Position numbers and translations under genes: made by a program
Source: Candidatus Heimdallarchaeota archaeon AB_125
GTDB lineage: Archaea; Asgardarchaeota; Heimdallarchaeia; Heimdallarchaeales; Heimdallarchaeaceae
Assembly: GCA_001940755.1 (NCBI GenBank)
Contig: MEHH01000030.1
Location: forward strand, 1 to 15,617
Length of the DNA: 15,617 bases
Direction: 5' to 3'
The notes under the pieces: generated by a model
The model's database searches: none
Told to the model about the DNA's origin: nothing
The model's input: the letters and a program-made list of their open reading frames with translations, nothing else
Shown: piece by piece, positions 1-15,617 of the stretch
Layout of the letters: every line of letters starts with the position of its first letter
Position numbering within the stretch: position 1 is the first letter of the stretch

Positions 1-17
1 TATCTATATTTTGTAAA

Positions 18-33
18 TTTGTCCCGAGACAAA
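18..33. promoter_or_regulatory. Imperfect palindrome TTTGTC-CCGA-GACAAA, candidate operator upstream of the TATA box
   Basis: Read directly: tttgtcccgagacaaa. The half-sites TTTGTC/GACAAA are inverted around a 4-nt core. A second near-identical copy lies 44 nt downstream at 62-77. Confidence 0.45.
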
Positions 34-36
34 ATC

Positions 37-44
37 TTTTTATA
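37..44 (+). promoter_or_regulatory. Archaeal TATA-box-like element (TTTTTATA) for the 93..950 gene
   Basis: tttttata lies between the two palindromes, about 50 nt upstream of ATG 93. A transcription start about 25 nt downstream would fall inside the second palindrome. Confidence 0.4.
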
Positions 45-61
45 CGATTAAAAGAATCCTT

Positions 62-77
62 TTTGTCTCGAGACGAA
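62..77. promoter_or_regulatory. Second palindrome TTTGTC-TCGA-GACGAA, candidate operator at the predicted transcription start
   Basis: tttgtctcgagacgaa; the core gtctcgagac is a perfect 10-bp palindrome. It has the same half-sites as 18-33. Confidence 0.45.
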
Positions 78-92
78 ATACGTGTGATAAAA

Positions 93-950
93 ATGAATGA
101 CACAGAGAAAAAAGGTCCAGGAAGACCCAAAAAATATGCAACTGATGCAGAACGAAAAAAAGCCTATCGTGAGCGTAAAAAGGAAGAAAGACAAAACTGG
201 GAGAAATCACGAGTTAAAAGAAGAGTTGAATTACAAGAAAGAGTTTATAAAATGGAAAAAACTATTGTAAAAAAAGTCTATGATGAGGAATATTCTGGAA
301 CCTCCTTATATAGAGAGTTACATGAACAAATTAAGGTACGTTCAGCTAAATATACTCCTTTGGAATTGTCTGAGATGCCACTCGAAGACTTACTTAGTAT
401 CCAAGAAACACTAACCACTAGATATTATGGTAGTTATTACAATCCTATTCTTGTAGCATTGGAAACTGCTATCATGCCATCAGTTGATAAGGAATTTGAT
501 TCTCGAAAATCTGAACTTGGTCTAGTGACTTCACAAGATCAATTAGCTGAAAAATTAGCTAAAATTCATGATGAAACTACTCCAAAAACTGATCAAAAAG
601 TGGACAAGTATATAGATAAACTCAAAGCTGAAGGAATAACATTGTCAATAGAAGAAATGCTAACACTTCGATCAACAATGGAGAAAAGATCAGATGAACA
701 ATCTAGACCCTGGAGAGTAATAAAAGCTCCTTACAGAACAGATAATCTAATTGAGGTTTTTCAAGAATTGATGATGCTTTACAATGTTCAAGCTGAATTA
801 TCTAGAAGAGAAAGAGGCACCGAACTTGACTCAACAATTGAAAAACTTGAGAAAAGATTCGAGAATATAGAAAAAATTCTAGCAAACGAGAAAAAACGAA
901 TTGCTAAAGAAAACGCAACCAGAAGTAAGAAGAAACAAAAAGACAATTGA
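93..950 (+). CDS. Lys/Glu-rich protein with an N-terminal basic GRP/AT-hook-like segment and predicted coiled coils; putative DNA-binding protein of unknown family
   Basis: The track ORF 63..950 opens with TTG inside the palindrome, so the first ATG at 93 (MNDTEKKGPGRPKKYATDAERKKAYRERKKEERQ...) is the more likely start. The N-terminus is strongly basic with a GRPKK motif, and the rest is charged heptad-like sequence. I recognised no family. Confidence 0.6.
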   Translation: MNDTEKKGPGRPKKYATDAERKKAYRERKKEERQNWEKSRVKRRVELQERVYKMEKTIVKKVYDEEYSGTSLYRELHEQIKVRSAKYTPLELSEMPLEDLLSIQETLTTRYYGSYYNPILVALETAIMPSVDKEFDSRKSELGLVTSQDQLAEKLAKIHDETTPKTDQKVDKYIDKLKAEGITLSIEEMLTLRSTMEKRSDEQSRPWRVIKAPYRTDNLIEVFQELMMLYNVQAELSRRERGTELDSTIEKLEKRFENIEKILANEKKRIAKENATRSKKKQKDN

Positions 951-1096
951 ATCAATAAGTACGAAATCCTTGTACTAGATGTGCTATTGGGAAGAAAATC
1001 CTTTCTGTATACTTCTCTTCAAGCAATATTGCTTTTTCTCCCTTTTGTAGAGTAAAAGTTATATTTTGCTAGTAATATTATCTTTCTAGTGATTAA

Positions 1097-1273
1097 ATGG
1101 TTGTACATAGACCTGATGCATTTATCTGTAATAATTGTGATAATCGTTTCAACAATAATGAGAAGAAAACACTGAAAGAAGAAGTTGATGGTATTTTCAC
1201 AACAAAAACTGTATGTCCTGAATGTCTTTCAGCTGATATACGAACCACAATTACAGGGCAGAGAGAAGAATAA
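1097..1273 (+). CDS. Small zinc-ribbon protein (58 aa), not in the supplied ORF track
   Basis: My translation: MVVHRPDAFICNNCDNRFNNNEKKTLKEEVDGIFTTKTVCPECLSADIRTTITGQREE*. It has two CxxC pairs (CNNC, CPEC). A TATA-like aagttatatttt sits about 30 nt upstream of the ATG. Confidence 0.6.
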   Translation: MVVHRPDAFICNNCDNRFNNNEKKTLKEEVDGIFTTKTVCPECLSADIRTTITGQREE

Positions 1274-1348
1274 TTTCTAAAAAGTGTATTACGAGAGTAA
1301 TGTCCTTATCATACTTATTCTATAAAAAAGCCACTCCATTTTAGATTC

Positions 1349-1522
1349 ATGCAGCCAGAGAGTCTTGTTGAAGAAATGAATAGTATTCTCTCTAAAATGG
1401 ATAGAGAATTGAAGAACTTAAACAAGGAATTAGATAAAATATTAGTTAAATATCCAAGATATATGGATAATGATGAAAAGAAGCTCAAATATGAACTATA
1501 CAAGTTCAATCACGGAAAATAA
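1349..1522 (+). CDS. Small charged helical protein (57 aa), not in the supplied ORF track
   Basis: My translation: MQPESLVEEMNSILSKMDRELKNLNKELDKILVKYPRYMDNDEKKLKYELYKFNHGK*. A TATA-like ttctataaaaaag sits about 25 nt upstream of the ATG. The antisense track ORF 1315..1509 is low-complexity S/L/F-rich and is probably its shadow. Confidence 0.5.
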   Translation: MQPESLVEEMNSILSKMDRELKNLNKELDKILVKYPRYMDNDEKKLKYELYKFNHGK

Positions 1523-1665
1523 TTAAGTAAATCTCTTCTTTTTATAATAACTGAGTTTTGGGGGGTTAAATTAGTCATCTAATTTCATTCATTTTTAGGT
1601 TTTTTGAGGAACAATTTTATAGCAAAGGATTCTTATCGTAATCAGAGAACTGAATAGGTTTTTCT

Positions 1666-2706
1666 ATGAAAGAAGTAAAAATAATCATACCTTCAGAGAA
1701 ACTAGAGATAGTTAAAGAACTGGAGGAAAGACTTGGATTAGTGTTCAATATATTTATTTTCGAGAATGTAGTAACAATAAATACAACTCTTGAGAATCAG
1801 CACACTTCAACTTTATTGGAGGAATTAAAAGGATTAGGAGTTGGAACTGTTTTTGGTCGTATCACAGTTTCACCTGTTTCCTTTGAGATTTCATCAGATA
1901 AGAAGGATCCAAAAACTCGAAGAAGAAGTATAAGTATTGACGAAATGATTGCTAATATCAAAGATCTATCATTGCTGAATCCAACTTATTTGGGTCTGAT
2001 TCTGCTTGCTGGAGCTTTGGCTTCATTTGGACTAATCTACAATAACGTCATAATTATGATTGCAAGTATGATCATTGCACCTCTATTAGGCCCAATTGCT
2101 CTAGCAGTTATAGGAACTATGACACCTAAAAATATCTTCTCAAAGAAAGCAATAGTGACTGAAATATTTGGTTTAGCAGTCATAATAGGTTTCGGAGTCA
2201 TCGTTGGTTTGATTTTCAATAGATCACCTGATTCTTTGATCTTAGATCAGATCCCTCCAGGTGATTTAGATTCACAAATAGCTATTAGAATCATCCCTAA
2301 TACAGGAGATGTTATATTTGCAATAGCAAGTGGTTTAGCAGCTGGAATATTTATAATCAGAGGAGAAAATACAGCAATAGTTGGTGTTGCTGTTGCTGCT
2401 TCATTGTGCCCCCCTGCTGCAAATGTAGGAGTTTTACTAGCACATCATACTACAATCAGAATGGCAACCGGATCATTATTACTTCTTGGTCTAAACATTA
2501 TCTCAATTTATGCTTCATGTGCACTAATATTCTGGACATCACAATCCTTCGTTAGAGGAGGAACTGTCTCAACAAGACAATATAGAAAGATAAGTAAAAT
2601 GTACATTACTCAGATAGCTATTACTTTTCTAATCTTAGCTGGCGTTGTGATTCTAATTGGATTGAACAATCTATATAAATTTCTAGAGGTTCTATTTTTC
2701 GGGTAG
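1666..2706 (+). CDS. DUF389/TIGR00341-type integral membrane protein with a small N-terminal soluble domain
   Basis: About 100 aa of soluble N-terminus is followed by multiple TM helices. The segments MIIAPLLGPIALAVIG and VGVAVAASLCPPAANVGVLLA match the two signature stretches I recall for DUF389 (xAPLMGPI, VGVAIAxALxPP). Confidence 0.65.
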   Translation: MKEVKIIIPSEKLEIVKELEERLGLVFNIFIFENVVTINTTLENQHTSTLLEELKGLGVGTVFGRITVSPVSFEISSDKKDPKTRRRSISIDEMIANIKDLSLLNPTYLGLILLAGALASFGLIYNNVIIMIASMIIAPLLGPIALAVIGTMTPKNIFSKKAIVTEIFGLAVIIGFGVIVGLIFNRSPDSLILDQIPPGDLDSQIAIRIIPNTGDVIFAIASGLAAGIFIIRGENTAIVGVAVAASLCPPAANVGVLLAHHTTIRMATGSLLLLGLNIISIYASCALIFWTSQSFVRGGTVSTRQYRKISKMYITQIAITFLILAGVVILIGLNNLYKFLEVLFFG

Positions 2707-2713
2707 GGATTTC

Positions 2714-2890
2714 TTACCTGAAATGTTCAATCATAGATTTCATTACCATTTTTACTGCATGTTGAGCTTCGTCTGTAAGATCAGTGAAACCCTTCCCACA
2801 GTCTGGACAAGCTTCATACCCCTCAGGGTCACTTTTGTCAAACTTAAATCCGCAATGGAAGCAGTAAACATCATTAGGAAGTTTGCTCAT
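2714..2890 (-). CDS. Small zinc-ribbon protein (58 aa)
   Basis: The track ORF 2714..2899 starts with TTG, so the in-frame ATG at 2890 is preferred (MSKLPNDVYCFHCGFKFDKSDPEGYEACPDCGKGF...). It has two CxxC pairs. The overlapping + strand ORF 2723..2926 looks like its shadow. Confidence 0.6.
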   Translation of the reverse strand: MSKLPNDVYCFHCGFKFDKSDPEGYEACPDCGKGFTDLTDEAQHAVKMVMKSMIEHFR

Positions 2891-3016
2891 TTGTATCAAA
2901 AAAAGATAGAGATTAGTTACAAATAAACCTTTGTGAAAAAAGAGTTCTTTTGTCGAGAAAGTATATAAGCAAAATCGTATAATTGTATTTTTAGAACTAC
3001 TATAATTGGTGAAAAG

Positions 3017-4228
3017 ATGAAAATAACAAAAAGAAAAGAGGTGGGAGGATTATGGGTTTTAGTTTTACTGATTGGTTTAAATCTAATGGTATTCTCACAA
3101 GATACAATAGCTTTACAGAATGATTTTTCCGAATCAATTTATCCGGCTTTGGATGATTATATAGAAATTCCTGAAATGTTTATAGATACTGATGAAGATT
3201 TTGGACCTGCTGAATGGAATTTTCCAGGTGATGGTTCTCCAGGTAATCCCTTCATAATTGAAAACTATAATGTTACAAGCGGAGGTCCATTTGGTATCCT
3301 AATTGATGCTAGTGGAGGACCCCACGCATTTAATGTTTCTTTCATTATTCGTAACTGTATAGTTACAGCGTTGGAAGTTTGTATAAAAATAGTTGATGCT
3401 TATCCAAATTTAGTTAAAATAGAAAATTGTATCTGTAGTGGTACAATTGCTGGAGATGGAATAGGTATTCACCTTGTAAGATGTGATGGTGCAATATTAA
3501 CAGACAATACATGCAATTTTAATCATCATACAGGGATTAGATTAGATACTACAGCTGGAGCAGTATTAACAGGGAACACATGTCAAAATAATGGTGATGA
3601 AGGAATATATCTTGACAATGCCTCAGACAATTGCATACTCAATAGTAATACGTTAACATTGAATGTTTATGGATTCTGGGATCAAATAAGTCATGGTACT
3701 CTCCTAAACTACAACGTAATTGCTAACAATAGTTTCGAAGGAATACTAGTATATGATTCAAGCAATGTTGTAATTGAAAACAACACGATTGAAACGAATG
3801 GAGGAGTTTCAGCAGATGGAATCTATTTCTCAAACGCTGACAATGCTCAAGTAATTTTCAACGAGATTATTGGAAATGGTGGTTATGGTTTAAACATGGA
3901 TGAGTATTCAAACTATAATGTTATTCACCATAACAACTTCATACAGAATAATCAAGGAGGAGTACAAGGAAAAGAAGATTATACTACTGGTCATCAGAAT
4001 GCTACCTGGTATGATGTAGCTATTCAAGAAGGCAATTTCTGGTTTGATTATGTAGGCCCCGGAGTTTACAACATAGATGGTACATGTGCAAACACTGATC
4101 CATTTCCGTTAGGCTCTCAAGTGATAATTACTACTATAGTTATCCCTGAATTTTCATTAAATCTTATTGGCTTAATTCTTACTCTATCGATCTTTGGTTT
4201 AGTTATAATCTTCATAAAGAGAAAGTAA
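3017..4228 (+). CDS. Secreted right-handed parallel beta-helix (PbH1/NosD-like) repeat protein with a PEF-CTERM-type C-terminal sorting/anchor signal
   Basis: It has an N-terminal signal/TM segment (GGLWVLVLLIGLNLMVFS). Tandem ~22-aa repeats rich in N/G/I follow (e.g. GIHLVRCDGAILTDNTCNFNHHTGIRLDTTAGAVLTGNTCQNNGDEGIYLDNA). The C-terminus reads PEF-SLNLIGLILTLSIFGLVIIFI-KRK, a tripartite motif + TM + basic tail. GGTGA lies 5 nt upstream of the ATG. Confidence 0.75.
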   Translation: MKITKRKEVGGLWVLVLLIGLNLMVFSQDTIALQNDFSESIYPALDDYIEIPEMFIDTDEDFGPAEWNFPGDGSPGNPFIIENYNVTSGGPFGILIDASGGPHAFNVSFIIRNCIVTALEVCIKIVDAYPNLVKIENCICSGTIAGDGIGIHLVRCDGAILTDNTCNFNHHTGIRLDTTAGAVLTGNTCQNNGDEGIYLDNASDNCILNSNTLTLNVYGFWDQISHGTLLNYNVIANNSFEGILVYDSSNVVIENNTIETNGGVSADGIYFSNADNAQVIFNEIIGNGGYGLNMDEYSNYNVIHHNNFIQNNQGGVQGKEDYTTGHQNATWYDVAIQEGNFWFDYVGPGVYNIDGTCANTDPFPLGSQVIITTIVIPEFSLNLIGLILTLSIFGLVIIFIKRK

Positions 4229-4254
4229 TTCTTTCCTTTTTTTTCTTTATTTTT
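4229..4254 (+). terminator. Oligo-T archaeal-type terminator after the beta-helix gene
   Basis: ttctttccttttttttctttattttt follows the stop codon directly. It contains a T8 run at 4237-4244 and a T5 run at 4250-4254. Confidence 0.5.
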
Positions 4255-4398
4255 GCCAATAAGAAGGATCATCAATTCCAAGATGCCAAGTAATTTTGTA
4301 TGCCAAGGTTTCACATGAATACTGTATTTGTTATTTAATTTGGTCTATTCCTCAAAAGACTAAAGATTTATTACTCTCTATGCGTGAAAAAACACACT

Positions 4399-6324
4399 AT
4401 GACATTAGTAGAAAAGTTGTGCGAAAAACATACTGTAGAAAATGCTTTAGAACACGGGAAAGCTGCTGTAGGGCCAGTTATGGGGCTAGTATTCAAAGCA
4501 GATCCTGAATTGAGAAAAGATGCAAATAGCATCAAAGAGATTATCGAAAAGAAAGTTAATTATGTTAACTCACTAACAGCTGAAAAAATACAACAACTCG
4601 CACAAGATCAATATCCCGAACTTCTTCAAAAGAAAGAGAAAGAGGTTCAGGAAGAAGCTGATTTCATAAGAGAGATAATCGAAGAACACAATCGAACTGG
4701 ACGATTTGGTGGAAAGGTTCATACTCGATTCCCTCCTGAACCTAATGGTTGGTTACATATTGGTCACGCTTATTCGATAAATAGGAACTATAATTTTGCA
4801 GTAGAGTATGGTGGTAAGTTTAACCTTAGATTTGATGATACAAACCCTCTCACAGAAGAAGAAGAGTTCGTTGATTCAATTATCAAAGACGTGCTTTGGT
4901 TAGGAGTTGACTACGAAGATAGATTGCTGTTTGCGTCTGATTATTTCGATCAACTCTATGAATATGCAGTCCAACTAGTAAGAAAAGGGCTGGCGTACGT
5001 AGATGATTCAAGTGTTGAAGTAATTAGAGAGATGAGAGGAACTATTACTGAACCTGGAAAGGAAAGTCCTTACAGAAACAGATCCATTGAAGAAAACTTA
5101 GATCTCTTTGAGAGAATGAAGAAAGGTGAATTCAAAAACGGAGAAAAAGTACTTAGAGCTAAAATCGATATGGCTGATCCAAATATGCTCATGAGAGATC
5201 CTATAGTTTACAGAATTCTTCATGCTAGTCATCATAGAACAGGTGATAAATGGTGCATATATCCAATGTATGACTGGGCACATGGATTAGAAGATTCCAT
5301 TGAGAGAATCACACACTCTATCTGTACTCTTGAGTTCGAAGTTCATAGACCTCTATATGATTGGTATATTGACCAACTGGAAGAAGAGGAAGGAAGTCCA
5401 ATTCATCATTCTCAACAAATCGAATTTGCAAAGATGAATCTCTCCTATATGGTTCTGAGTAAAAGAAATATGAGGATGCTTGTAGAAGGAGAATATGTTA
5501 ATGGCTGGGATGATCCTAGAATGTTAACTATAGCTGGTATGAGACGTAGAGGATACACTCCTGAAGCTATTCGCAATTTCTCTTTAGCAATAAACTTCAC
5601 CAAAAGAGAGAAGATCATTGATATGTCTATCTTTGAGCACTATATTCGTGAAGATTTAGACAAGAAGTGTCCAAGAGTGATGAGTGTACTAAGTCCACTA
5701 AAAGTAGTAATTACTAATTATCCTAATGAGAAAGAAGAAGTATTTTCAGTACCTAATCACCCATCAGATAAAAGTATGGGAAACCGAGAAGTGAAATTTA
5801 CTAGAAACATATACATTGAACAAGAGGATTTCATGGAAAATCCTCCTGAAGATTATTATAGACTTTCTCCAGGTAAGGAAGTTAGGTTAAAGTATGCTTA
5901 TTTCATCAAGTGTGAAAATGTTGTTAAAGATGAAGGAACTGGAGAAATTAAGGAAATCCATTGTACTTACGATTCAGAGACAAAAGGAGGAGAATCTTCT
6001 GATGGAAGAAAAGTGCAAGGAACTATTCACTGGTCATCTTCAGATAATGCATTAGAAGTTGAAGTCAGACAATATGATCGTCTGTATACTAAAGAGAATC
6101 CCATGGAAACTGAAGAAGGTAAAGAATTCAAGGACTACATCAATTCTGATTCTATAAGTATTTTGAAATCCTATGTCGAACCATTTCTCAAAGAGAAGGA
6201 ACCTGGGTCAAGATTCCAATTTGAAAGAAATGGATATTACGTGATAGATATAGTTGATTCAACTAAGGAAAATATTGTATTCAACAGAATCATAACATTA
6301 AGAGATTCTTGGGCTAAGAAATAG
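4399..6324 (+). CDS. glnS: Glutaminyl-tRNA synthetase (class Ic) with an extra ~90-aa N-terminal GatB/YqeY-like helical domain
   Basis: HTRFPPEPNGWLHIGHAYS (HIGH), NLRFDDTNP, YPMYDWAHGLEDSIERITHSICTLEFEVHRPLYDWYI and MVLSKR (KMSKS) match the E. coli GlnRS motifs as I recall them (TRFPPEPNGYLHIGHAKS, LRFDDTNP, YPMYDF..THSLCTLEF, VMSKR) rather than GluRS. DFIREIIEEH aligns to E. coli NFIRQIIDED, so about 90 residues are N-terminal extension. The start is either GTG 4384 (track) or ATG 4399. A TATA-like aagatttatta about 27 nt upstream favours a leaderless ATG at 4399. Confidence 0.9.
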   Translation: MTLVEKLCEKHTVENALEHGKAAVGPVMGLVFKADPELRKDANSIKEIIEKKVNYVNSLTAEKIQQLAQDQYPELLQKKEKEVQEEADFIREIIEEHNRTGRFGGKVHTRFPPEPNGWLHIGHAYSINRNYNFAVEYGGKFNLRFDDTNPLTEEEEFVDSIIKDVLWLGVDYEDRLLFASDYFDQLYEYAVQLVRKGLAYVDDSSVEVIREMRGTITEPGKESPYRNRSIEENLDLFERMKKGEFKNGEKVLRAKIDMADPNMLMRDPIVYRILHASHHRTGDKWCIYPMYDWAHGLEDSIERITHSICTLEFEVHRPLYDWYIDQLEEEEGSPIHHSQQIEFAKMNLSYMVLSKRNMRMLVEGEYVNGWDDPRMLTIAGMRRRGYTPEAIRNFSLAINFTKREKIIDMSIFEHYIREDLDKKCPRVMSVLSPLKVVITNYPNEKEEVFSVPNHPSDKSMGNREVKFTRNIYIEQEDFMENPPEDYYRLSPGKEVRLKYAYFIKCENVVKDEGTGEIKEIHCTYDSETKGGESSDGRKVQGTIHWSSSDNALEVEVRQYDRLYTKENPMETEEGKEFKDYINSDSISILKSYVEPFLKEKEPGSRFQFERNGYYVIDIVDSTKENIVFNRIITLRDSWAKK

Positions 6325-6340
6325 CAGAGCATTAGAAAAA

Positions 6341-6348
6341 TTTAAAAT
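6341..6348 (+). promoter_or_regulatory. TTTAAAAT TATA box preceded by an A-rich BRE-like stretch, upstream of tRNA-Gln(UUG)
   Basis: The identical octamer TTTAAAAT also occurs upstream of the other two tRNA genes (9264-9271, 10921-10928). Here it lies 53 nt upstream of tRNA position 1. Confidence 0.55.
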
Positions 6349-6366
6349 TGAAACAATAAATCAACG

Positions 6367-6388
6367 GTTGTCAAAGAAATTTGACAAC
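6367..6388 (+). other. Perfect 9-bp inverted repeat with a GAAA loop (GTTGTCAAA-GAAA-TTTGACAAC) between glnS and tRNA-Gln
   Basis: Read directly. It lies 43 nt after the glnS stop and 5 nt before the tRNA 5' end. It could be an RNA hairpin (mRNA 3' end or pre-tRNA leader) or a protein-binding palindrome. Confidence 0.5.
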
Positions 6389-6393
6389 ACTTT

Positions 6394-6501
6394 AGTCCCT
6401 TGGTGTAGCCTGGAAACATTCCAGACTTTGAATCTGGCGCCGGGAGTTCAAAAGGTATTCTCTTGCGAGGAGAGCCTGAATTTATCTCCCAGGGACTACC
6501 A
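6394..6501 (+). tRNA. tRNA-Gln(UUG) with a ~32-nt intron in the T-loop and a genomically encoded CCA
   Basis: Manual fold:
- acceptor AGTCCCT/AGGGACT (A1:U72)
- D arm GTGT-AGCCTGGAA-ACAT
- anticodon arm CCAGA-CTTTGAA-TCTGG (TTG at 6428-6430)
- T stem GGGAG (6442-6446)/CTCCC (6486-6490), enclosing 39 nt instead of 7
- discriminator A, then CCA. Confidence 0.85.
6453..6484 (+). other. Non-canonical tRNA intron (about position 58/59 or 59/60) with a BHB-like fold
   Basis: Removing 32 nt restores a canonical T-loop TTCAAAT. The junction is ambiguous by +/-1 because of the A run. TTCA (6447-6450) pairs with TGAA (6477-6480), a 4-bp helix flanked by an AAA bulge (6451-6453) and a T-rich bulge (6481-6485). 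The inner helix is GGT/GCC. The apical hairpin is TTCTC-TTGC-GAGGA. Confidence 0.65.
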
Positions 6502-6648
6502 ACTTTTTCTAATTAATGAGATCAAAAACTAGTATCTTTTGTTTCAAGTGATTCTTTCAGTTCAAGTAACAAGGATTTCTTATAAAAAAGAGTTAAATAC
6601 GTACACTACTTCTGTATTTGTTGAAGAGATTAATAAGAAGGAGATTAT

Positions 6649-6981
6649 GTGATCTCAGAGAAATTTAAGAGAAAGATTCAAGCAATATGGATTTCATTCA
6701 GACCTTTTCTGATTTTCTTATTAGTAATAGCTATTTTGTTTGCTATAGCTCTGCTCATTATAGCTTTGGTTTGGTTATTTGATGATAATAACGTTACTTT
6801 CCTAATTCTTGTAATTATAGACTTCTCTGTTCTTGGAATTTTTGCTATAGGATTCTTAGCTTTTGGATTCCAGTATGTAATATCATTACTAATAGAAAAA
6901 GAAGAAGTAAAATGTATCAATTGTGGAAAGACAATATCGAGTAAAGCTAAAATCTGCTCTGAATGTGGTGTAGAGCAGTAA
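6649..6981 (+). CDS. Small membrane protein (2-3 TM helices) with a C-terminal zinc ribbon
   Basis: It has a GTG start with AAGGAG 6 nt upstream and a TATA-like tcttataaaaaag about 65 nt upstream. The hydrophobic core is FLIFLLVIAILFAIALLIIALVWL... and the C-terminus is CINCGKTISSKAKICSECG. The antisense ORF 6678..7022 is probably spurious. Confidence 0.6.
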   Translation: MISEKFKRKIQAIWISFRPFLIFLLVIAILFAIALLIIALVWLFDDNNVTFLILVIIDFSVLGIFAIGFLAFGFQYVISLLIEKEEVKCINCGKTISSKAKICSECGVEQ

Positions 6982-7009
6982 TAAGCGCAAATCAACACTA
7001 AAAGACTAA

Positions 7010-7441
7010 CTAAATATAACAAACTAAGATTTCAATTTCTGAATCACTAAACACTTCATGTATTATATCTCTAACTTTATTCCATTCTAGTTTATCTATT
7101 CCACTGCCTACTTTAGGCATCGCTAACTTCTTGATGCTCTTCTCTACGCATATTTCTCTCATTCTTTCTAATGCTTGTTTCATAGTTTCATAGGTAGGTT
7201 TGTGAAAAACTAGATTCTTTGTAATTAAATTGAATACTCTCCCTAATAGAATGCAAGTTGGATGATCTAGAACTGAAGGATTTTCTTTCTTTATCTGCCT
7301 GAATTGTTCTTTTAGATCAAATTTCTTGTTGAATGGAACTGCTATTCCTCCTCCCATAACGAAATCTGAGCTTATGCAATGAGCAAGATAATAGTCTTCA
7401 GACACAGTAAAAAGATCTTTTTGTAATTCTTGATAATGCAT
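7010..7441 (-). CDS. Macrodomain protein of the TARG1/OARD1 (C6orf130)/Poa1-like type; putative ADP-ribose/O-acetyl-ADP-ribose hydrolase
   Basis: [38 protein letters not shown] and [24 protein letters not shown]...IEILVCYI align by eye with human TARG1 as I recall it ([54 protein letters not shown]..IEEVF). The Lys (HKPTYE) and Asp (GxGxD) that are catalytic in TARG1 are both present. Confidence 0.75.
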   Translation of the reverse strand: [143 protein letters not shown]

Positions 7442-7476
7442 CTCATATCACATTTTTCTGATTTTTCTTATTCATT

Positions 7477-9210
7477 CTATTTCATATCTTTTTCAGCTAA
7501 ATATCTTCTTTCAATTTTTTCTTTATCTATAGACATTGTAAATCTCGATTTAATCCAAATAGTCAAGTTCTTTATCATTTTAACTGTTACTTTGTATTTT
7601 CTCTCAATAATAACAGCTGCTACAACTGTACCAATCCATACGGGTAAGAGATATCCAGCATATAAAACGGACCAGTTATCCCATTTTTGTGGATTTAAAC
7701 CTCTTCTGTATTCTTTCAAGTTGATTATCCCATCTGAATCCGAATCCAAGTTTGAATCATCAAGGAGAGGATCGAGATTATATTCATATTCCCAGTTATC
7801 TAGCATTCCGTCTGAATCACTATCTGGATTTGATATGTTTGTACCAGCAAATGTTTCACATAGATCACTCATATAATCTCCATCACTATCAATGTGACCA
7901 TGATTTCTGTAATCTCCTCTAAAGCTCCACCACGAACTTTGACTTGGTTGAGCTTCAGGATATTGAATACATACAAGATTTCCGGGATCTGGATTAGCTA
8001 CAATCTCTACGATTCCATCATCATTTAGATCTCCTATTGCATAACTAGAAAACCAGCACTTACCAATATCTAAAACTAACTCTTGGGTTCCATTTTCATC
8101 ATATATCTCTATACCATGAGTAGTCCCAAACAATATTTCTATATCATTATCTCCGTCAACATCTGATAATGCTATATGAGAACTACCAATTCCAGCTAAA
8201 CTGCTTGTATTCCACTTTTGTAATCCATTGCTACCTAAACAAACAAGAATTGAAGTATAGATATCTTCTAACAATATTACTAACTCCATTTGATTATCAT
8301 TGTCGAAATCTGCAAAACTAGGAGCATAATGAATTAAGTGATGATAGCTTTGGGATGAATTATGATAACTTCCAGTATTATACTTCCACCTCAATGTTCC
8401 ATTATGATTGAAACAGTAGACAAATTGTCTTAAAGTAGTCACGAACAACTCTAAATTTCCATCATTGTCTATATCAGCAAAATTTGTCCATCGAGGATCA
8501 TCGTTGTACCACGCATCTAAAAGATCATAGCTCCATTTAACAGTTCCATTTGAATCAAATACATAAAGCTGCTCATCCTTTGGAAGAACAATAATATCTA
8601 AACTTCCGTCTTGATCTAAATCTATAATGTTAGGAGAAGAGTATGTTTCATAGCCTTCGGTTGATACATTTAATAGCCTAACCACCTTTCCCCTAGAATT
8701 TAAGATAAAGGGTGTACTTCTATCAGGTTGAATAACAATTTCCAATCTATCATCACCCTCTAAATTTCCTATTGCAGGAAGACTATGCTCTGTATCACTA
8801 AAATCTGTATTTTTCCACATTAATCGTCCTTTATGACTTATGCAATATATCCCATATCTTGCCGCAAAGATTATTTCCATTTTGCCATCTCGATCTACAT
8901 CACTCACACTATAGTAGTCACAAAAACCTGTTATGTCTCTGAAATAAAATTTCCATATTGTTTTTCCAGAAGAATCAAAACATATAAGTCTTGGATTTGT
9001 TCCATAATCATCAGTAATAACAGCTAACACTTCCTTTCTTCCATCCTGATCTATATCTGCAATTGTTATTGATCCTTCCACATCTTCAAATTCTCTTATC
9101 CACAATGCTAGATCTAAATCATCAGATGCTGATTGAGTAAAGGTAACATTTGAGGTAAGAAACAAAACTGTGAAAATAAAAGAAATACTCCACAACCTAA
9201 TAATTTTCAT
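7477..9210 (-). CDS. Type-I membrane surface protein: signal peptide, about 8 FG-GAP/VCBS Ca-binding beta-propeller repeats, TSP3-like Asp-rich repeats, C-terminal TM helix and a 42-aa cytoplasmic tail
   Basis: The signal peptide is MKIIRLWSISFIFTVLFLTSNVTFTQSA. DxDxDG-type loops recur at regular spacing (DIDQDGRKEVL, DVDRDGKMEII, DLDQDGSLDII, DIDNDGNLELF, DFDNDNQMELV, DVDGDNDIEIL, DLNDDGIVEIV). These are followed by DSDGDYMSD / NPDSDSDGMLDNWE / DSDSDGIINLKE. The TM helix is SVLYAGYLLPVWIGTVVAAVII (nt 7606-7671), then ERKYK. Confidence 0.75.
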   Translation of the reverse strand: MKIIRLWSISFIFTVLFLTSNVTFTQSASDDLDLALWIREFEDVEGSITIADIDQDGRKEVLAVITDDYGTNPRLICFDSSGKTIWKFYFRDITGFCDYYSVSDVDRDGKMEIIFAARYGIYCISHKGRLMWKNTDFSDTEHSLPAIGNLEGDDRLEIVIQPDRSTPFILNSRGKVVRLLNVSTEGYETYSSPNIIDLDQDGSLDIIVLPKDEQLYVFDSNGTVKWSYDLLDAWYNDDPRWTNFADIDNDGNLELFVTTLRQFVYCFNHNGTLRWKYNTGSYHNSSQSYHHLIHYAPSFADFDNDNQMELVILLEDIYTSILVCLGSNGLQKWNTSSLAGIGSSHIALSDVDGDNDIEILFGTTHGIEIYDENGTQELVLDIGKCWFSSYAIGDLNDDGIVEIVANPDPGNLVCIQYPEAQPSQSSWWSFRGDYRNHGHIDSDGDYMSDLCETFAGTNISNPDSDSDGMLDNWEYEYNLDPLLDDSNLDSDSDGIINLKEYRRGLNPQKWDNWSVLYAGYLLPVWIGTVVAAVIIERKYKVTVKMIKNLTIWIKSRFTMSIDKEKIERRYLAEKDMK

Positions 9211-9263
9211 AAAAACACAATAATCTGTTCGAATTTAAATATCCTTTGGTTTCAAGAGAAGGA

Positions 9264-9271
9264 TTTAAAAT
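9264..9271 (+). promoter_or_regulatory. TTTAAAAT TATA box upstream of the 9307 tRNA
   Basis: Same octamer as at 6341 and 10921. It lies 43 nt upstream of tRNA position 1. Confidence 0.55.
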
Positions 9272-9306
9272 CTAACTAGTAGAACAAAAGATGTAATCAA
9301 CAAACT

Positions 9307-9381
9307 AGCCCTATGGTGTAGTGGCCAAGCATTGTAGGTTTCGGTCTGCAGACGGAAGTTCGAATCTTCCTAGGGCTACCA
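9307..9381 (+). tRNA. tRNA-like gene with an irregular anticodon arm; identity ambiguous (Arg-UCG in the standard register, or an 8-nt loop containing UUC/UCG); encoded CCA
   Basis: The acceptor AGCCCTA/TAGGGCT (A1:U72), D arm GTGT-AGTGGCCAA-GCAT and T arm GGAAG-TTCGAAT-CTTCC are all good, followed by discriminator A and CCA. The anticodon stem is the problem. The standard register GTAGG/CTGCA gives only 2 pairs. Shifting by one nt gives 5 pairs, TGTAG (9333-9337)/CTGCA (9346-9350), with an 8-nt loop GTTTCGGT. Confidence 0.6.
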
Positions 9382-9399
9382 GTTTCTTTTATTCTTCTT

Positions 9400-10119
9400 T
9401 TACCAAGGTAACTCATTACCTTCCCAATCAAAGAATTTACCGGTTTCTTCTATAGACAGATTATCAATTACATTTCTAATTCCTTTAATTGATTCATATG
9501 TGGTTAGAGGAGCATTTTCAGTATATTCCATAGTGGTCTTGACCCATCCAGGATGAATGGAAACAACAGTTATTCCATCTTCTTCTAGATCAACAGAAAG
9601 TGCTTTAGTGATCATATTCAATGCCGCTTTACTAGCACTATAACTATATCCTCCTCCTTTTCGACTTCTTCTTCCAATACTCCCACTTGTTGATGAAATG
9701 TTGATAATAATTGGATTTTCTCCGTTTTTAATAAGTGGTAAAAATCTCTCAATAATAAGAACTGGAGCAATTGTGTTTACAGAAAATATTCTTTCAAAAT
9801 TCTCTTTATACAACTTACCTAGTTCATCATTGTACTTCTCTTGTGCCCCGAAACGGATTCCTGCATTGTTGATCAGTATATCTAAACCCTCCACTTCTTG
9901 AGAGACTATTGTAAAAGCATTATCAATTGAATCTTTATCAGAGACATCTAAATCAACTAAAATTAATCTATCTTGAAATTTGCCTTTTAATTCTAATAGT
10001 TCTGGATACTTTGATGGATTTCTATTGCAAGCTATAATTTTGTCTCCATTATCTAGGAGTTGTCTTACAAATTCGAATCCTAATCCTCTACTACTTCCAG
10101 TTATCAAAATCCTTCTCAT
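9400..10119 (-). CDS. Short-chain dehydrogenase/reductase, sniffer/C-factor-like classical SDR (paralog A)
   Basis: TGSSRGLGFEF (TGxxxGxG), NNAGI, YSYSASKAALN (YxxxK), HPGWVKT, and a C-terminal ...GNELPW. Confidence 0.85.
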   Translation of the reverse strand: MRRILITGSSRGLGFEFVRQLLDNGDKIIACNRNPSKYPELLELKGKFQDRLILVDLDVSDKDSIDNAFTIVSQEVEGLDILINNAGIRFGAQEKYNDELGKLYKENFERIFSVNTIAPVLIIERFLPLIKNGENPIIINISSTSGSIGRRSRKGGGYSYSASKAALNMITKALSVDLEEDGITVVSIHPGWVKTTMEYTENAPLTTYESIKGIRNVIDNLSIEETGKFFDWEGNELPW

Positions 10120-10145
10120 AACTATCTTTCCTATATGTCAAATAT

Positions 10146-10865
10146 CTACCAGGGAACTTCTTTTCCTTCTCTATCAAGAAATTTACCAGAATCTGAGAGT
10201 CCACTTCTTTCAGTTAAATCAATTATTTGTGATATTGGTTCTTCTATTTCCAATGGAGCATTCGAACCACCCATATCTGTTTTTATCCACCCTGGGTGAA
10301 TTGCTAATGCAACTATTCCTTTATCCCTCAAATCATTTGATAAAACTTTTGTAACCATGTTAAGAGCTGCCTTACTTGTTGAATAGGAATATTTGCCGCC
10401 AACATTTCTCAAAGCAATACTTCCATTCTGAGAAGAAATGTTAACTATCTTTGCATTACTGCTATTTTCCAAAAGTGGTAAAAATCTTTCAGACATTAAT
10501 AATGGTGCAATAGTATTGACTAAAAAGACCTTACTAAAGTCTTCTTTGTAAATCTCTCCAAGTACTGAGGATTCTTCCTCATTTCCGGAAATTATTCCTG
10601 CATTATTGATAAGAATATCAATATTATCGAATTCTTTCTCAATTTCTTCAAAAACTGTATTTCGAGACTGCTCATCTGCAACATCAAGTTGTACAATAGT
10701 TAATCTATCAGAAAATCTAGTCTTCATCTCTTTCAAATCATCAGCTTTCTCAGGTTTCCTGCAACTAGCAATAACATAATCTCCTCTTTCAAGATATTGT
10801 TTTGTAAATTCAAATCCTAACCCTCTACTAGCTCCAGTAATGAAAATTTTCTTCATAAAATTCAT
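10146..10865 (-). CDS. Short-chain dehydrogenase/reductase, sniffer/C-factor-like classical SDR (paralog B)
   Basis: TGASRGLGFEF, NNAGI, YSYSTSKAALN, and a C-terminal ...GKEVPW. HPGWIKTDMGGSNAPL is close to the Drosophila sniffer motif HPGWVKTDMGGSSAPL as I recall it. The start is ATG 10865 or ATG 10856. Confidence 0.85.
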   Translation of the reverse strand: MNFMKKIFITGASRGLGFEFTKQYLERGDYVIASCRKPEKADDLKEMKTRFSDRLTIVQLDVADEQSRNTVFEEIEKEFDNIDILINNAGIISGNEEESSVLGEIYKEDFSKVFLVNTIAPLLMSERFLPLLENSSNAKIVNISSQNGSIALRNVGGKYSYSTSKAALNMVTKVLSNDLRDKGIVALAIHPGWIKTDMGGSNAPLEIEEPISQIIDLTERSGLSDSGKFLDREGKEVPW

Positions 10866-10920
10866 AGAAATTAGACATTTATAACAACTTTCTTTGAAGT
10901 TTTGAAGCTTCTACCAAAAC

Positions 10921-10928
10921 TTTAAAAT
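10921..10928 (+). promoter_or_regulatory. TTTAAAAT TATA box upstream of tRNA-Gln(CUG)
   Basis: Same octamer as at 6341 and 9264. It lies 42 nt upstream of tRNA position 1. Confidence 0.55.
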
Positions 10929-10962
10929 TTCCCGTTAATCTACTCAATTCGGTAAGAAGTGA

Positions 10963-11036
10963 AGACCCATCGTCTAGTGGAAGGATACGGGACTCTGGAT
11001 CCTGTGGCAGGCGTTCAAATCGCCTTGGGTCTGCCA
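10963..11036 (+). tRNA. tRNA-Gln(CUG), intron-less, encoded CCA
   Basis: Manual fold:
- acceptor AGACCCA/TGGGTCT (A1:U72)
- D arm GTCT-AGTGGAA-GGAT
- anticodon arm CGGGA-CTCTGGA-TCCTG (CTG at 10995-10997)
- variable region TGGC
- T arm AGGCG-TTCAAAT-CGCCT
- discriminator G, then CCA. Confidence 0.85.
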
Positions 11037-11038
11037 TT

Positions 11039-11515
11039 TTAACATTTTAAGCAATAATTATCTAGATGGATGGTTTTATTATCGCAGTTTGAGCAAAAGA
11101 GAATCTTTGTTTTATCTAAATTGAATTTATTTAGTTTCTCTTCTATTTCAGCTTTAGAGTGATACATTAGAACTACAGTATTTGGACTACCTTCAACCAT
11201 TCTAGAAAGAGGTCTATTCTTTTCATTCAACAAACAAATTACTGGCATATCATTTTGAAGAGCATACATTATTTCCATCCCAACTCCATGAGATGGTTCA
11301 TTAACATCTGCAATTATCCTTGCTGATTGTTGTAACCAATTCATATCTCTCTCAAACACTTCTTTTGATGTGGCATCTTCCATTTTACCAGGAACAAATG
11401 GATTGTATCCTTGTGATTCTGCGAATTTAACAAGAATATCTAGTAAAGAGAAGTCTAGTTGTGTGGCTTTTATCATTGAACAAGCAATGTAAACATTTTT
11501 TTCTCTCTTTATCAT
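11039..11515 (-). CDS. DNPH1/Rcl-like 2'-deoxynucleoside 5'-phosphate N-hydrolase / nucleoside 2-deoxyribosyltransferase-fold protein fused to a C-terminal zinc ribbon
   Basis: ERDMNWLQQSARIIADVNEPSHGVGMEIMYA...PVICLL aligns by eye with mammalian DNPH1 as I recall it (EQDLEWLQQADVVVAEVTQPSLGVGYELGRA...ILCLF). The catalytic Glu in GVGxE and the Asp in the D(L/M)xWL motif are both retained. The C-terminus is CSNCDNKTIHLDNYCLKC. A TATA-like cttttatatt sits about 27 nt upstream of the ATG. Confidence 0.7.
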   Translation of the reverse strand: MIKREKNVYIACSMIKATQLDFSLLDILVKFAESQGYNPFVPGKMEDATSKEVFERDMNWLQQSARIIADVNEPSHGVGMEIMYALQNDMPVICLLNEKNRPLSRMVEGSPNTVVLMYHSKAEIEEKLNKFNLDKTKILFCSNCDNKTIHLDNYCLKC

Positions 11516-11558
11516 TAAACAAAAATAAAATAAAGAAATATAAAAGTAGTTTTCAAGC

Positions 11559-12989
11559 TTAAATCATTACTGCTTGTTCTGATAGCTTCTTTAATCCATT
11601 TAATGCTGTTAATGCTATAGTAGTTTCTTCAATACTAGAGTTCCATAGACCCTCTTTATCTTGAATTGCAGCAAGATAAATGGCAGACTTCTTTAGAGGT
11701 AAGGAATCAGCTGTTTCACTTGGGAGGAGTGATTGAATAACATATCCAGTTGTTCCAATATTCGCTGCCCATGAGCCTTCAATAAATTGGGTTCCAATAA
11801 CAGCTTGAACAAATTGTTGTCTTCTTGTAGGGGCTCTTCTGATATCATGTAATGCCAGCATCATTCTTGCAAACATTTCAATAGGAGTTTTTCCTGTCTG
11901 CGATGTGGAAAATCGAGCATACCCTCTTTTAACAATAATATCAATTGATGCGGAGAAAAGATTAGCCATCTTATCAAGTAATTTAATATTACCGGTAATA
12001 TCTCCAACATAACTCATCATGATATGTAGAGGGGTAGTTCTAGAACGAAGATTTGAAGTAAATCTATTCAACTTATTGATGAAATCCCATTCTGTTTCTT
12101 CAAAAATTGAATCGAAGAATTCAGTTACCAAATCTATTCTAGTATCGAAAATTGTTGGATCAAAGAGACTAAGAACATATAAAACGTAGAACTGTTCATA
12201 TGAGTTATCAATTGTTTCAGCTGTGTCAACTACAGCTTTAAGACTCTCAATAGACTTACCTAAAGTTACAGTTTTCTTACCTTCTTCTGTATTAATTATC
12301 CATTCTGTGTCCTCATTGTATCCTAAAACGTTAAAAAGTTCCAATACACAAGCTGTTTCGAATGTGGGATTAAAGTCTCCCCAGAAACCTTCTTCAGAAA
12401 CTCTGCGTTTCAGCGCATTTAATCCCTTAGTCATAGATTTGTTAATGTTTAGTTCAGCTAATCTCTTGGTCTCAAGACTTTTTTCAAGAAGAGAAAATTG
12501 ATTTTCCAATCCAAAAGTGTCAGACCTATCAGTTCTTGGTATTGAAAACAGGAAATACGCTGATTCTATCACATTAAGGAGAAAGAACAAGACTATTAAC
12601 GCAACACTTATCGAGTCTACTCTTCCTAATGGATCACCTGTTGCTACTTCAATGTAAAATCCAGGTATACTTGCATAAAGAATGATTACAGTGAGAGAAG
12701 CAATTCCTAAAACTGATAATAGTTTATTTGTATTTTCACCAAATATATCTATGAAATAGTGGTTTTCAATATAACTAAGAATCAGAACTAATTCAAAGAA
12801 AAATCCTAATGGGAAGAAAATGTATTTACCTGTTGGGCCCATCGGTGCAAAGGTAATAACGTACAGATACACCAGAGTGATAGCAAAAATGGTTAAACCA
12901 AACACTAATGTTTCAACAAATCTTCTCAGTCCAATCCTTTGCCCAAACTTCAGTACCCTCGAATAAATACGGTAAGTTTCTTGAGTCAT
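11559..12989 (-). CDS. Membrane protein: 4 N-terminal TM helices plus a ~320-aa C-terminal domain with prenyltransferase/terpene-cyclase-like alpha/alpha-toroid repeats
   Basis: Hydrophobic helices lie within aa ~27-148. Later repeats resemble the PF00432-type motif: EEGFWGDFNPTFETACVLELFNVLGY, EGSWAANIGTTGYVIQSLL, KEGLWNSSIEETTIALTALNGL. I recognised no catalytic motif. Confidence 0.55.
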   Translation of the reverse strand: MTQETYRIYSRVLKFGQRIGLRRFVETLVFGLTIFAITLVYLYVITFAPMGPTGKYIFFPLGFFFELVLILSYIENHYFIDIFGENTNKLLSVLGIASLTVIILYASIPGFYIEVATGDPLGRVDSISVALIVLFFLLNVIESAYFLFSIPRTDRSDTFGLENQFSLLEKSLETKRLAELNINKSMTKGLNALKRRVSEEGFWGDFNPTFETACVLELFNVLGYNEDTEWIINTEEGKKTVTLGKSIESLKAVVDTAETIDNSYEQFYVLYVLSLFDPTIFDTRIDLVTEFFDSIFEETEWDFINKLNRFTSNLRSRTTPLHIMMSYVGDITGNIKLLDKMANLFSASIDIIVKRGYARFSTSQTGKTPIEMFARMMLALHDIRRAPTRRQQFVQAVIGTQFIEGSWAANIGTTGYVIQSLLPSETADSLPLKKSAIYLAAIQDKEGLWNSSIEETTIALTALNGLKKLSEQAVMI

Positions 12990-13050
12990 TAGATAAACTA
13001 ACTTAACTTAATATAAAAAAATTGCTGATAAACCGTATAAAAATTAAGCA

Positions 13051-13395
13051 TTATGCAAACACATAAGCTAAAATTATGACCAATACACTAATTATTGTAA
13101 GAGTTCCCATAATCCAAGTCCATTCTTTGAACATTTTACCTGCTTCTTCAGGTTTATCTCTTTTCTTCATTCTGAAGGAAGATGCAATTCCTGCCAAACC
13201 CAATGGATAGAGCATAAAAACGATATTTACAGCGTTGAATGCTTTGTCTCCTAAAAAGATAACAATGAATGAAATTATAAATAATACTGCACCAACAATT
13301 GAGATCAAATCTAAAATCTTGTCACCAAATTCTGTCTTTCCATATTCATCTTTTATGGTTTTGAATGTTTTGCCAATAGTTTGTCGTATGCTCAT
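13051..13395 (-). CDS. Small integral membrane protein (3 TM helices), unknown function
   Basis: Three hydrophobic stretches: ILDLISIVGAVLFIISFIVIFL, IVFMLYPLGLAGIASSF, WIMGTLTIISVLVIILAYVF. A TATA-like gtataaaatag sits about 22 nt upstream of the ATG. Confidence 0.55.
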   Translation of the reverse strand: MSIRQTIGKTFKTIKDEYGKTEFGDKILDLISIVGAVLFIISFIVIFLGDKAFNAVNIVFMLYPLGLAGIASSFRMKKRDKPEEAGKMFKEWTWIMGTLTIISVLVIILAYVFA

Positions 13396-13484
13396 AGATT
13401 TCCCCTATTTTATACTCTCGACTTAAAGACTGATAATCTATTTATAAATCTTCTTTTCTCTTCGGAAATTAGAAACACATTGAT

Positions 13485-13856: not shown

Positions 13857-13984
13857 ATCGAACCTCCAGAATCTGAACCCCTATTTATATTGTTTGATAT
13901 AAAGAGAAGAAAAATAGAAAATAAATAAATAGTTAGCTGAAATATTATATAATATCTAAAAAAATTGATTCATAGTTGATTAGA

Positions 13985-14188: not shown

Positions 14189-14246
14189 TTTCACTTAATG
14201 CGTTAAATTTATTAATTCTACATGGTTCATAATATTCGAAGTAAGG

Positions 14247-14328: not shown

Positions 14329-14430
14329 AAGATACTGTTTTGATCTTCAAAGCTTTTTCAGTGTAACCTAGTTTTGCATACACTTGTTGTCTTTTTGTCT
14401 TAACCCCCTCTTTGTGGAAGTGTATCAAAA

Positions 14431-15222: not shown

Positions 15223-15236
15223 TCTCCTCTTTTTTA

Positions 15237-15614: not shown

Positions 15615-15617
15615 ATT

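Follow-up and report, generated by a model that had tools for sequence, protein, structure and literature searches.

A predicted glutaminyl-tRNA synthetase of Heimdallarchaeia with a bacterial-type body and an N-terminal domain of the archaeal GluRS kind

The glnS locus and its gene product

The window analysed here is a 15,617-nucleotide stretch of Candidatus Heimdallarchaeota archaeon AB_125 (contig MEHH01000030.1, positions 1 to 15,617). It is AT-rich, with a GC content of 0.30-0.36 throughout, and the element in question is a gene for glutaminyl-tRNA synthetase (GlnRS). The gene lies in a 646-codon open reading frame at 4384-6324 (+), which opens with GTG at 4384 and closes with a TAG ending at 6324. 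The closest proteins are more than 50 homologues of 636-647 amino acids (aa), which share 62-100% identity and the same architecture with it and start with MTSVEK or MNSVEK at a position equivalent to ATG 4399. Thus, ATG 4399 is a likelier start than GTG 4384, and the N-terminal extension described in a first-pass annotation of this DNA stays in the protein. We consider it quite probable that the gene encodes a functional, glutamine-specific enzyme of Heimdallarchaeia (hereafter Heimdall GlnRS), a chimera in which the N-terminal domain (N-domain) of an archaeal glutamyl-tRNA synthetase (GluRS) was grafted onto a bacterial body early in the clade. The gene and its parts are as follows.

4399-6324, plus strand: GlnRS coding sequence, 641 aa and a TAG stop; the in-frame GTG at 4384 would add 5 residues.
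4399-4644, plus strand: N-domain, residues 1-82, a four-helix module assigned by homology to the N-domain of archaeal non-discriminating GluRS (ND-GluRS).
4645-4659, plus strand: charged linker from the N-domain to the GlnRS body, roughly residues 76-87 (KKEKEVQEEA), with a predicted local distance difference test score (pLDDT) below 50 at residues 80-86.
4660-6321, plus strand: bacterial-type GlnRS body, residues 88-641, assigned by end-to-end alignment to bacterial GlnRS and by neighbour-joining trees.
4756-4767 and 5452-5466, plus strand: HIGH (residues 120-123) and VLSKR motifs of the body, which contains a catalytic Rossmann fold.
5035-5061, plus strand: acceptor-unpairing loop RGTITEPGK of the body, which also contains two beta-barrel anticodon-binding domains.
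5380-5397, plus strand: 6-residue acidic insertion EEEEGS in the catalytic domain, residues 328-333, from alignment and length counts.

By every available sequence criterion, the protein is a true GlnRS. It scores 690 bits against the NCBIfam model TIGR00440 (glnS; cutoff 426) and 386 bits against TIGR00463 (archaeal gltX), which is under the 402 cutoff of the latter. The Pfam domains tRNA-synt_1c, tRNA-synt_1c_C and tRNA-synt_1c_C2 correspond to the class I glutamate/glutamine catalytic domain and to both anticodon-binding barrels. Among solved structures, the stretch from residue 87-91 to the C-terminus aligns with the GlnRS of P. aeruginosa and E. coli at 644-647 bits. The motifs quoted in the first-pass annotation are all present, namely HTRFPPEPNGWLHIGH (residues 108-123 in the numbering of the 641-aa protein), LRFDDTNP (143-150), THSICTLEF (305-313) and VLSKR (352-356). 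The reading of the gene as a true GlnRS in an archaeal genome thus stands, on the TIGR00440 score and on the assignment of the contig to Heimdallarchaeia given below.

The residues that would contact the substrates are also retained. In the alignment, the equivalents of the E. coli glutamine-pocket residues R30, Y211, C229 and Q255 are visible in the segments TRF, YPMYD, SICTLEF and QQIEF. The anticodon-contact positions R341, R402, R410, Q517, E519 and R520 (E. coli numbering) match E. coli in 23-25 of the 25 Heimdall sequences sampled; five of the six do so in all 25, and R410 is replaced by lysine in two. The hydrophobic position 136 of the unpairing loop is occupied by I, L, V or F in 24 of these sequences.

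The acidic insertion lies behind the YDWY(I/L)DQL helix, has the general form E-[DE]-E-[DEN]-G-x and is found in every one of the 25 sampled Heimdall GlnRS. The stretch that contains it is 14 residues long in all of them, versus 8-10 residues in 90 of 95 bacterial and 8 in three of three eukaryotic enzymes; a single bacterial GlnRS of the 95 has a longer, unrelated stretch at this site. We also considered position 235 (D235) as an adaptation to tRNAs lacking G3:C70 and rejected it: the V, I or N that the Heimdall enzymes have at this position also occurs in 44 of the 95 bacterial GlnRS, the bacterial sister among them.

Origins of the N-terminal domain and of the body

A phmmer search with residues 1-82 against the PDB retrieved residues 3-83 of 3AII, the ND-GluRS of M. 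thermautotrophicus, with E = 1.9e-9. Profiles of the N-domain returned the 3AII N-terminus as the only match among PDB sequences (E = 3e-14 and 5e-29); GatB, GatE and YqeY chains were not found by these hidden Markov models against all PDB sequences. HMMER searches over 1.84 billion representatives gave 68 matches. Each full-length protein examined among them is an archaeal GluRS, and the remainder are short fragments from the N-terminus. The full-length carriers belong to Nitrososphaerota, Thermoprotei and others, all of them over GluRS cutoffs, and the match, at 30-44% identity, always lies at the extreme N-terminus of GluRS. None of the 95 bacterial GlnRS examined has the domain. On these homology searches, we firmly assign residues 1-82 to the archaeal GluRS N-domain. 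A recent copy of a sampled GluRS N-domain was rejected as its source: 44% is the maximum identity in the exhaustive search, and no recent donor is identifiable.

The first-pass annotation had placed an extension of ~90 aa ahead of a core starting at DFIREIIEEH (residues 88-97; NFIRQIIDED in E. coli GlnRS), and this extension is real. Relative to the ~90%-identical orthologue on the related contig L001, the N-domain shows 10, 4 and 27 differences at the first, second and third codon positions. It is kept in 48 distinct homologues, with N15, G20 and A22 invariant across the clade. The third-position bias and the invariant residues indicate that the domain is translated and constrained. The AlphaFold2 (AF2) model has a pLDDT above 90 over residues 1-70, with helices at 3-19, 24-34, 36-58 and 61-71, and shows one small helical module of ~75 aa, not the two-subdomain appendage of ~185 aa of eukaryotes. 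The linker behind it varies in length and sequence in the homologue alignment.

Within the Heimdall clade, identity is 52% in the N-domain versus 71% in the core, a ratio of 0.73, and the N-domain thus evolves faster. Heimdall N-domains are 32.6% identical to GluRS N-domains, which are 34.4% identical among themselves; the corresponding values for the cores are 32.1% and 37.4%. Since the N-domain is as near to the GluRS N-domains as these are to each other, despite its faster evolution, it looks grafted rather than co-inherited with the core, although saturation at identities near 30% weakens this argument.

The extension, with its motif HGKAAVGPVMGLVFKADPELRKDANSIKEIIEKKV (residues 19-53), had been described as GatB/YqeY-like, and this holds only in part. 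In the profile comparison proposed with that description, neither the N-domain alone nor 36 N-domains taken singly matched PF02637, PF09424, PF04557 or PF04558 in Pfam at E <= 10, with scattered chance matches only. The proposed structural comparison, a Foldseek search with the AF2 model, gave no match to the GatB/GatE tail, to YqeY (1NG6) or to the N-terminal domain of Gln4. What remains of the description is that its motif is the very stretch that hhalign aligns to GatE/YqeY tails, pairing GKAxxGxVMG...PELR of the N-domain with (S/G)xxxMGxVMG...GKAD. The alignment is weak, both against YqeY (P = 0.003, probability 11%) and against the GatE/YqeY tails (P = 6.5e-4, probability 27%, ~25 columns), and when columns were shuffled, 0 of 200 and 1 of 200 permutations scored as high. 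In addition, the N-terminal domain of archaeal GluRS has been published under the label "YqeY domain" (Nureki et al. 2010, PMC2978374). We therefore regard the N-domain, tentatively, as a distant relative of the GatE/GatB tail and of YqeY.

It is unlikely, in our view, that the enzyme is a working transferred GlnRS whose N-domain does not bind tRNA and instead makes protein contacts (with GatDE or another synthetase) or is a remnant of recombination between gltX and glnS. Such a role would fit the disorder of the GluRS N-domain in 3AII (PMC2978374), the lack of a Foldseek match to tRNA-binding GatB/GatE tails and the mere ~25 columns of GatE/YqeY similarity. However, the domain has been under purifying selection across a clade diverged to 62% identity, as its invariant residues and third-position bias indicate; the alignment falls on the G-x-x-M-G motif of GatE/YqeY tails, with a score that 0 of 200 shuffles reached; and the analogous appendage of yeast GlnRS increases tRNA affinity (PMC3333875). 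An N-domain that assists tRNA binding is thus the reading that we prefer.

The body shares ~58% identity with E. coli GlnRS and 62-65% with the GlnRS of Dehalococcoidia and Anaerolineae (Chloroflexota), and for GlnRS from some twenty bacterial phyla the value is 54-62%. After the Heimdall clade itself, the next-best matches are bacterial GlnRS of 551-586 aa, mostly from Dehalococcoidia and Anaerolineae. Neighbour-joining trees were computed from 401 columns of the catalytic domain; three distance corrections were applied, and the GluRS outgroup was either included or omitted. GlnRS were sampled from the Heimdall clade (25 sequences), from bacteria (95) and from eukaryotes (3, namely yeast, human and another fungus, transcribed from PDB alignments), and 21 GluRS served as outgroups. 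Heimdall monophyly received 99-100% bootstrap support, and the split of Heimdall plus bacteria versus eukaryotes plus GluRS received 100%. Bacteria excluding Heimdall were monophyletic in just 0-6% of replicates under all corrections and rootings. In the best tree, the Heimdall clade lies twelve nodes deep in the bacterial radiation, beside Anaerolineae. Its nearest sister is protein P0074, whose gene is surrounded by genes for sigma-54 activators, for two-component systems and for a bacterial-type GluRS, a clearly bacterial setting. In these trees, the Heimdall clade contains none of the 95 bacterial GlnRS.

Single characters and distances point the same way. A column was scored for nesting where a derived state is common to Heimdall and some bacteria while other bacteria keep the eukaryotic state; six columns fit Heimdall nested in bacteria and none fit a basal position (6:0). 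A strict version, with eukaryotic GlnRS and GluRS both serving as the ancestor, gives 1:0 and has almost no power. The mean distance to eukaryotic GlnRS is 0.92 for Heimdall versus 0.85 for bacteria.

Judged by these trees and characters, the body (residues 88-641) is a horizontal transfer from bacteria. The direction from bacteria to archaea follows from the absence of any bacterial sequence inside the Heimdall clade, and the transfer is old rather than recent because the clade itself has diverged to 62% identity. The closeness of Chloroflexota/Anaerolineae-like enzymes suggests the donor phylum, while the exact donor is uncertain because the internal bacterial branches are very short. The first-pass annotation had expected the gene to bear directly on where direct glutaminylation and the GlnRS of eukaryotes come from; this evolutionary weight is unsupported, since the body was imported from bacteria and groups with bacterial GlnRS. 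The core lies essentially inside a bacterial clade, the outcome that the annotation had itself set against its proposal, though as an old transfer rather than a recent one. The Heimdall enzyme does not revise the origin of eukaryotic GlnRS.

A very different history, in which GlnRS arose from a duplicated archaeal GluRS in the Heimdall/eukaryote stem and bacterial GlnRS descend from it with loss of the N-domain, would fit the collinearity of the protein with archaeal GluRS from residue 5 to the C-terminus. The GatB-like N-terminal appendage that eukaryotic GlnRS likewise has (PMC3333875) and the very short bacterial internal branches would also suit it, as would the position of Heimdallarchaeia as the closest archaeal relatives of eukaryotes (Appler et al. 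2024). We nevertheless hold it to be very improbable: bacterial monophyly excluding Heimdall at 0-6%, the 6:0 character count, a Heimdall enzyme no nearer to eukaryotic GlnRS than bacteria are, and a Heimdall clade in which no bacterium branches all argue against it, and the level similarity of the N-domain to GluRS despite faster evolution fits a later graft. The claim that the Heimdall enzyme keeps the original GlnRS architecture, and that bacterial GlnRS come from an Asgard enzyme rather than from eukaryotes, is if anything a shade less probable again; if true, the direct glutaminylation pathway would have been born in the archaeal ancestors of eukaryotes. A bacterial body with a grafted archaeal N-domain remains our reading.

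The archaeal host and its tRNA-Gln genes

The metagenome-assembled genomes of the closest homologues are labelled Candidatus Heimdallarchaeota, Heimdallarchaeaceae or Asgard group. On the syntenic 365-kb contig L083, an actin gene lies a few kb from the GlnRS gene. The Heimdall homologues, this actin gene, and the archaeal-type tRNAs with a bulge-helix-bulge (BHB) intron described below together indicate that the contig is archaeal. The occurrence of the same gene on many independent contigs makes contamination very unlikely. A chimeric assembly or a mis-binned bacterial fragment, as a metagenomic source and a body 62-65% identical to bacterial enzymes might suggest, is hardly credible given the recurrence of the same gene and N-domain in different samples and on many independent contigs of up to 365 kb, the flanking archaeal genes and BHB-intron/archaeal-type tRNAs, the uniform GC content (0.30-0.36) and an N-domain found in 0 of 95 bacterial GlnRS.

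A tblastn search confined to the Heimdall loci, with an archaeal GluRS and a GatE tail as queries, returned GlnRS genes only. One close homologue, P0026, is labelled Candidatus Bathyarchaeia, which could reflect a binning error or a second archaeal host.

Two tRNA-Gln genes accompany the GlnRS gene.

6394-6501, plus strand: tRNA-Gln(UUG), intron-split, with encoded CCA, A1:U72 and A73; it begins 69 nt after the GlnRS stop.
6452-6483, plus strand: archaeal tRNA intron of 32 nt at T-loop position 58/59, with a strict hBHBh' motif.
10963-11036, plus strand: tRNA-Gln(CUG), the second isoacceptor, with A1:U72, G73 and encoded CCA; found by ARAGORN and by Rfam (55 bits).

The order GlnRS, tRNA-Gln(UUG), tRNA-Gln(CUG) is kept in the window and on contigs L001, L083 and L002, whose enzymes are 90%, 75% and 65% identical to that of the window; in one sub-clade, GlnRS thus stands immediately ahead of both tRNA-Gln genes. 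The claim that a cognate tRNA-Gln(UUG) lies just downstream on the same strand is borne out. The gene was missed by ARAGORN and Rfam because the 32-nt intron interrupts the T-loop; after excision of the intron, ARAGORN reports tRNA-Gln(ttg). The spliced tRNA has 76 nt and the T-loop UUCAAAU, and its form is identical to the L001 orthologue. Checked base by base, the intron folds as a bulge-helix-bulge of 4 bp / 3 nt / 4 bp / 3 nt / 4 bp, with helix h GC/GU/GC/AU, bulge B1 AAA, helix H GU/UA/UA/CG, bulge B2 UUA and helix h' AU/GC/GC/UG. The orthologous tRNA-Gln(UUG) genes of L001, L002 and L083 occupy the same place and have no intron, which indicates a recent gain or loss of the 58/59 intron within Heimdallarchaeaceae. 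The first-pass annotation was silent on the intron, and the end coordinate 6501 that it gave includes it.

Both tRNA-Gln genes have the archaeal-type A1:U72 pair that had been noted, followed by G2:C71; at 3:70, one gene has U:A and the other A:U. The UUG species carries the discriminator base A73; the CUG species carries G73, and its orthologue in L001 has A73. The bacterial identity elements absent from Heimdall tRNA-Gln are U1:A72, G3:C70 and usually G73.

Three Anaerolineae loci also have a tRNA-Gln(CUG) beside glnS (L008 7743-7819, L031 5857-5931 and L035 6907-6982). The tRNA-Gln(CUG) of the window has a G73 and a short D-arm (UCGUCUAGUGGAAGGAU) like these Anaerolineae tRNAs and an archaeal acceptor stem; the identity is 54-65%, and the resemblance could be due to chance. 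Co-transfer of tRNA-Gln with glnS is not claimed, as the Heimdall acceptor stems are archaeal and the tRNAs are 39-65% identical to those of Anaerolineae.

The window has a further tRNA-like gene at 9307-9381 (+), which Rfam scores as a tRNA at 46 bits and ARAGORN reports as 'tRNA-???'. Its acceptor stem and D-arm resemble those of archaeal tRNA-Gln, with A1:U72, A73 and encoded CCA. The anticodon loop has only 6 nt (UUUCGG), or 8 nt with a shifted stem, and the gene lies in a segment that is missing from the syntenic L001. Two tandem paralogues of a 239-aa short-chain dehydrogenase, at 9400-10119 (-) and 10146-10865 (-), sit between this odd tRNA and tRNA-Gln(CUG); on L083, one copy lies at the equivalent place.

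Other tRNA-like genes occur ~5 kb downstream of the GlnRS gene at syntenic positions on L001 (13615-13690, +) and L083 (12235-12311, +), where the window has a 37-nt gap. Their acceptor, D- and T-arms are conserved with compensatory changes, and their anticodon arms are aberrant and AU-rich. The L001 gene has the loop AUUUAUU, is reported by ARAGORN as 'tRNA-Stop' (anticodon UUA, U37) and lies under the Rfam gathering threshold; the L083 gene has an 8-nt loop, AUAUUUAU. Both are ~65% identical to the odd tRNA at window position 9307, and they could be suppressor-like or non-decoding tRNA derivatives.

Proposed direct glutaminylation in an archaeon and its known parallels

We propose a model in which the chimeric Heimdall enzyme forms Gln-tRNA-Gln directly. 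The body would read the (C/U)UG anticodon of tRNA-Gln, its hydrophobic unpairing loop would open the weak A1:U72 pair, and the catalytic domain would join glutamine directly to the tRNA. The grafted N-domain may add largely non-specific tRNA affinity in cis, and this affinity could offset the bacterial identity elements that archaeal tRNA-Gln lacks (U1:A72, G3:C70 and usually G73). The enzyme would thereby allow Gln-tRNA-Gln to be made directly, either in parallel with ND-GluRS and GatDE or in their place. In D. radiodurans GlnRS, a C-terminal YqeY domain aids tRNA binding. The N-terminal domain of yeast Gln4 is GatB-like and increases the affinity for tRNA-Gln (PMC3333875). The fusion probably let the Heimdall enzyme charge archaeal tRNA-Gln.

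Several points weigh against this model and the history that it assumes. The trees are neighbour-joining trees on ~400 columns with three eukaryotic sequences and very short internal bacterial branches, and model artefacts may affect such distance trees. The similarity of the N-domain to GatB/YqeY is weak (hhalign probability 11-27%, Pfam and Foldseek negative), and the domain is disordered in 3AII, the only crystal structure (PMC2978374). The tRNA-Gln genes are not adjacent to the GlnRS gene on the more distant contigs L084 and L085 (62-66% identity). The retained A1:U72 pair is also a GatDE identity element, and the indirect GatDE route may still be in operation. However, A1:U72 is weak and suits an enzyme that opens the first pair, and its retention alone is thus no proof of GatDE use.

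Reviews from 2016-2022 state that no archaeon has a GlnRS and that archaeal tRNA-Gln is orthogonal to GlnRS, which they give as the reason for the failure of GlnRS to spread into archaea (PMC9499178, PMC8762117, PMC5388404). According to Tumbula et al. 2000, as cited in PMC9499178 and PMC8762117, it is the idiosyncratic archaeal tRNA-Gln that kept GlnRS out of archaea. The preprint of Appler et al. 2024 makes one passing mention of a Heimdall GlnRS gene, noting its location beside cox genes in Hodarchaeales and Kariarchaeaceae; in the literature searched, we found no description of the architecture or origin of Heimdall GlnRS beyond this mention. The kind of enzyme and the idea of a helper domain are known, and the combination of a bacterial body, an archaeal GluRS N-domain and an archaeal host is new.

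The Heimdall clade is a natural counter-example to the rule that archaea have no GlnRS, and it lies in the archaeal class closest to eukaryotes. The graft of a GluRS N-domain is a plausible way past the barrier posed by archaeal tRNA-Gln. The system is suited to probing the role of the GluRS N-domain, the rewiring of an identity set after transfer, and the possible coexistence of the direct and GatDE routes in one cell. A possible use lies in the engineering of orthogonal GlnRS/tRNA pairs.

Among named systems, the body resembles bacterial GlnRS (E. coli GlnS, 1GTR/1QTQ; P. aeruginosa, 5BNZ) from end to end over residues 88-641, at ~58-65% identity. They have in common HIGH, (K)MSK, the unpairing loop, the G36-recognition loop, both beta-barrels, and the anticodon-contact arginines and glutamine. 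Unlike the bacterial GlnRS examined, the Heimdall enzyme has an 87-residue N-terminal appendage and the 6-residue acidic insertion, and it is paired with tRNA-Gln that differs from the bacterial kind (U1:A72, G73, G3:C70) in having A1:U72, mostly A73, and no G3:C70. With archaeal ND-GluRS (3AII; TIGR00463), it shares a homologous N-domain (35-44% identity) ahead of the Rossmann fold and the same domain order, but the bodies are ~32% identical, and the unpairing and G36 loops of the Heimdall enzyme are absent from ND-GluRS.

Another parallel is the Deinococcus radiodurans GlnRS-YqeY fusion (2HZ7; NF011291), which likewise combines a bacterial-type body with a GatB/YqeY-related helper domain. 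NF011291 is the top-scoring model (814 bits), and the match covers positions 6-558 of its 769. As the best model, it explains why homologues such as P0002, P0011, P0015 and others bear the NCBI name 'glutamine--tRNA ligase/YqeY domain fusion protein'. Unlike the Deinococcus fusion, however, the Heimdall enzyme lacks the C-terminal YqeY (model positions ~560-769); its helper is N-terminal, ~80 aa long and derived from archaeal GluRS rather than a full YqeY. The name is therefore misleading: it implies a YqeY-like appendage, which is correct only by chance, and puts it at the wrong end of the protein.

Yeast Gln4 (residues 1-187, 3TL4) offers a further parallel: in both enzymes, an appendage at the N-terminus of a GlnRS is proposed to be related to the tRNA-binding domains of amidotransferases and to contribute to the affinity for tRNA-Gln. 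The yeast appendage consists of helical and tail subdomains over ~187 aa, whereas that of Heimdall is a single bundle of ~75 aa, and the two bodies sit on different branches of GlnRS.

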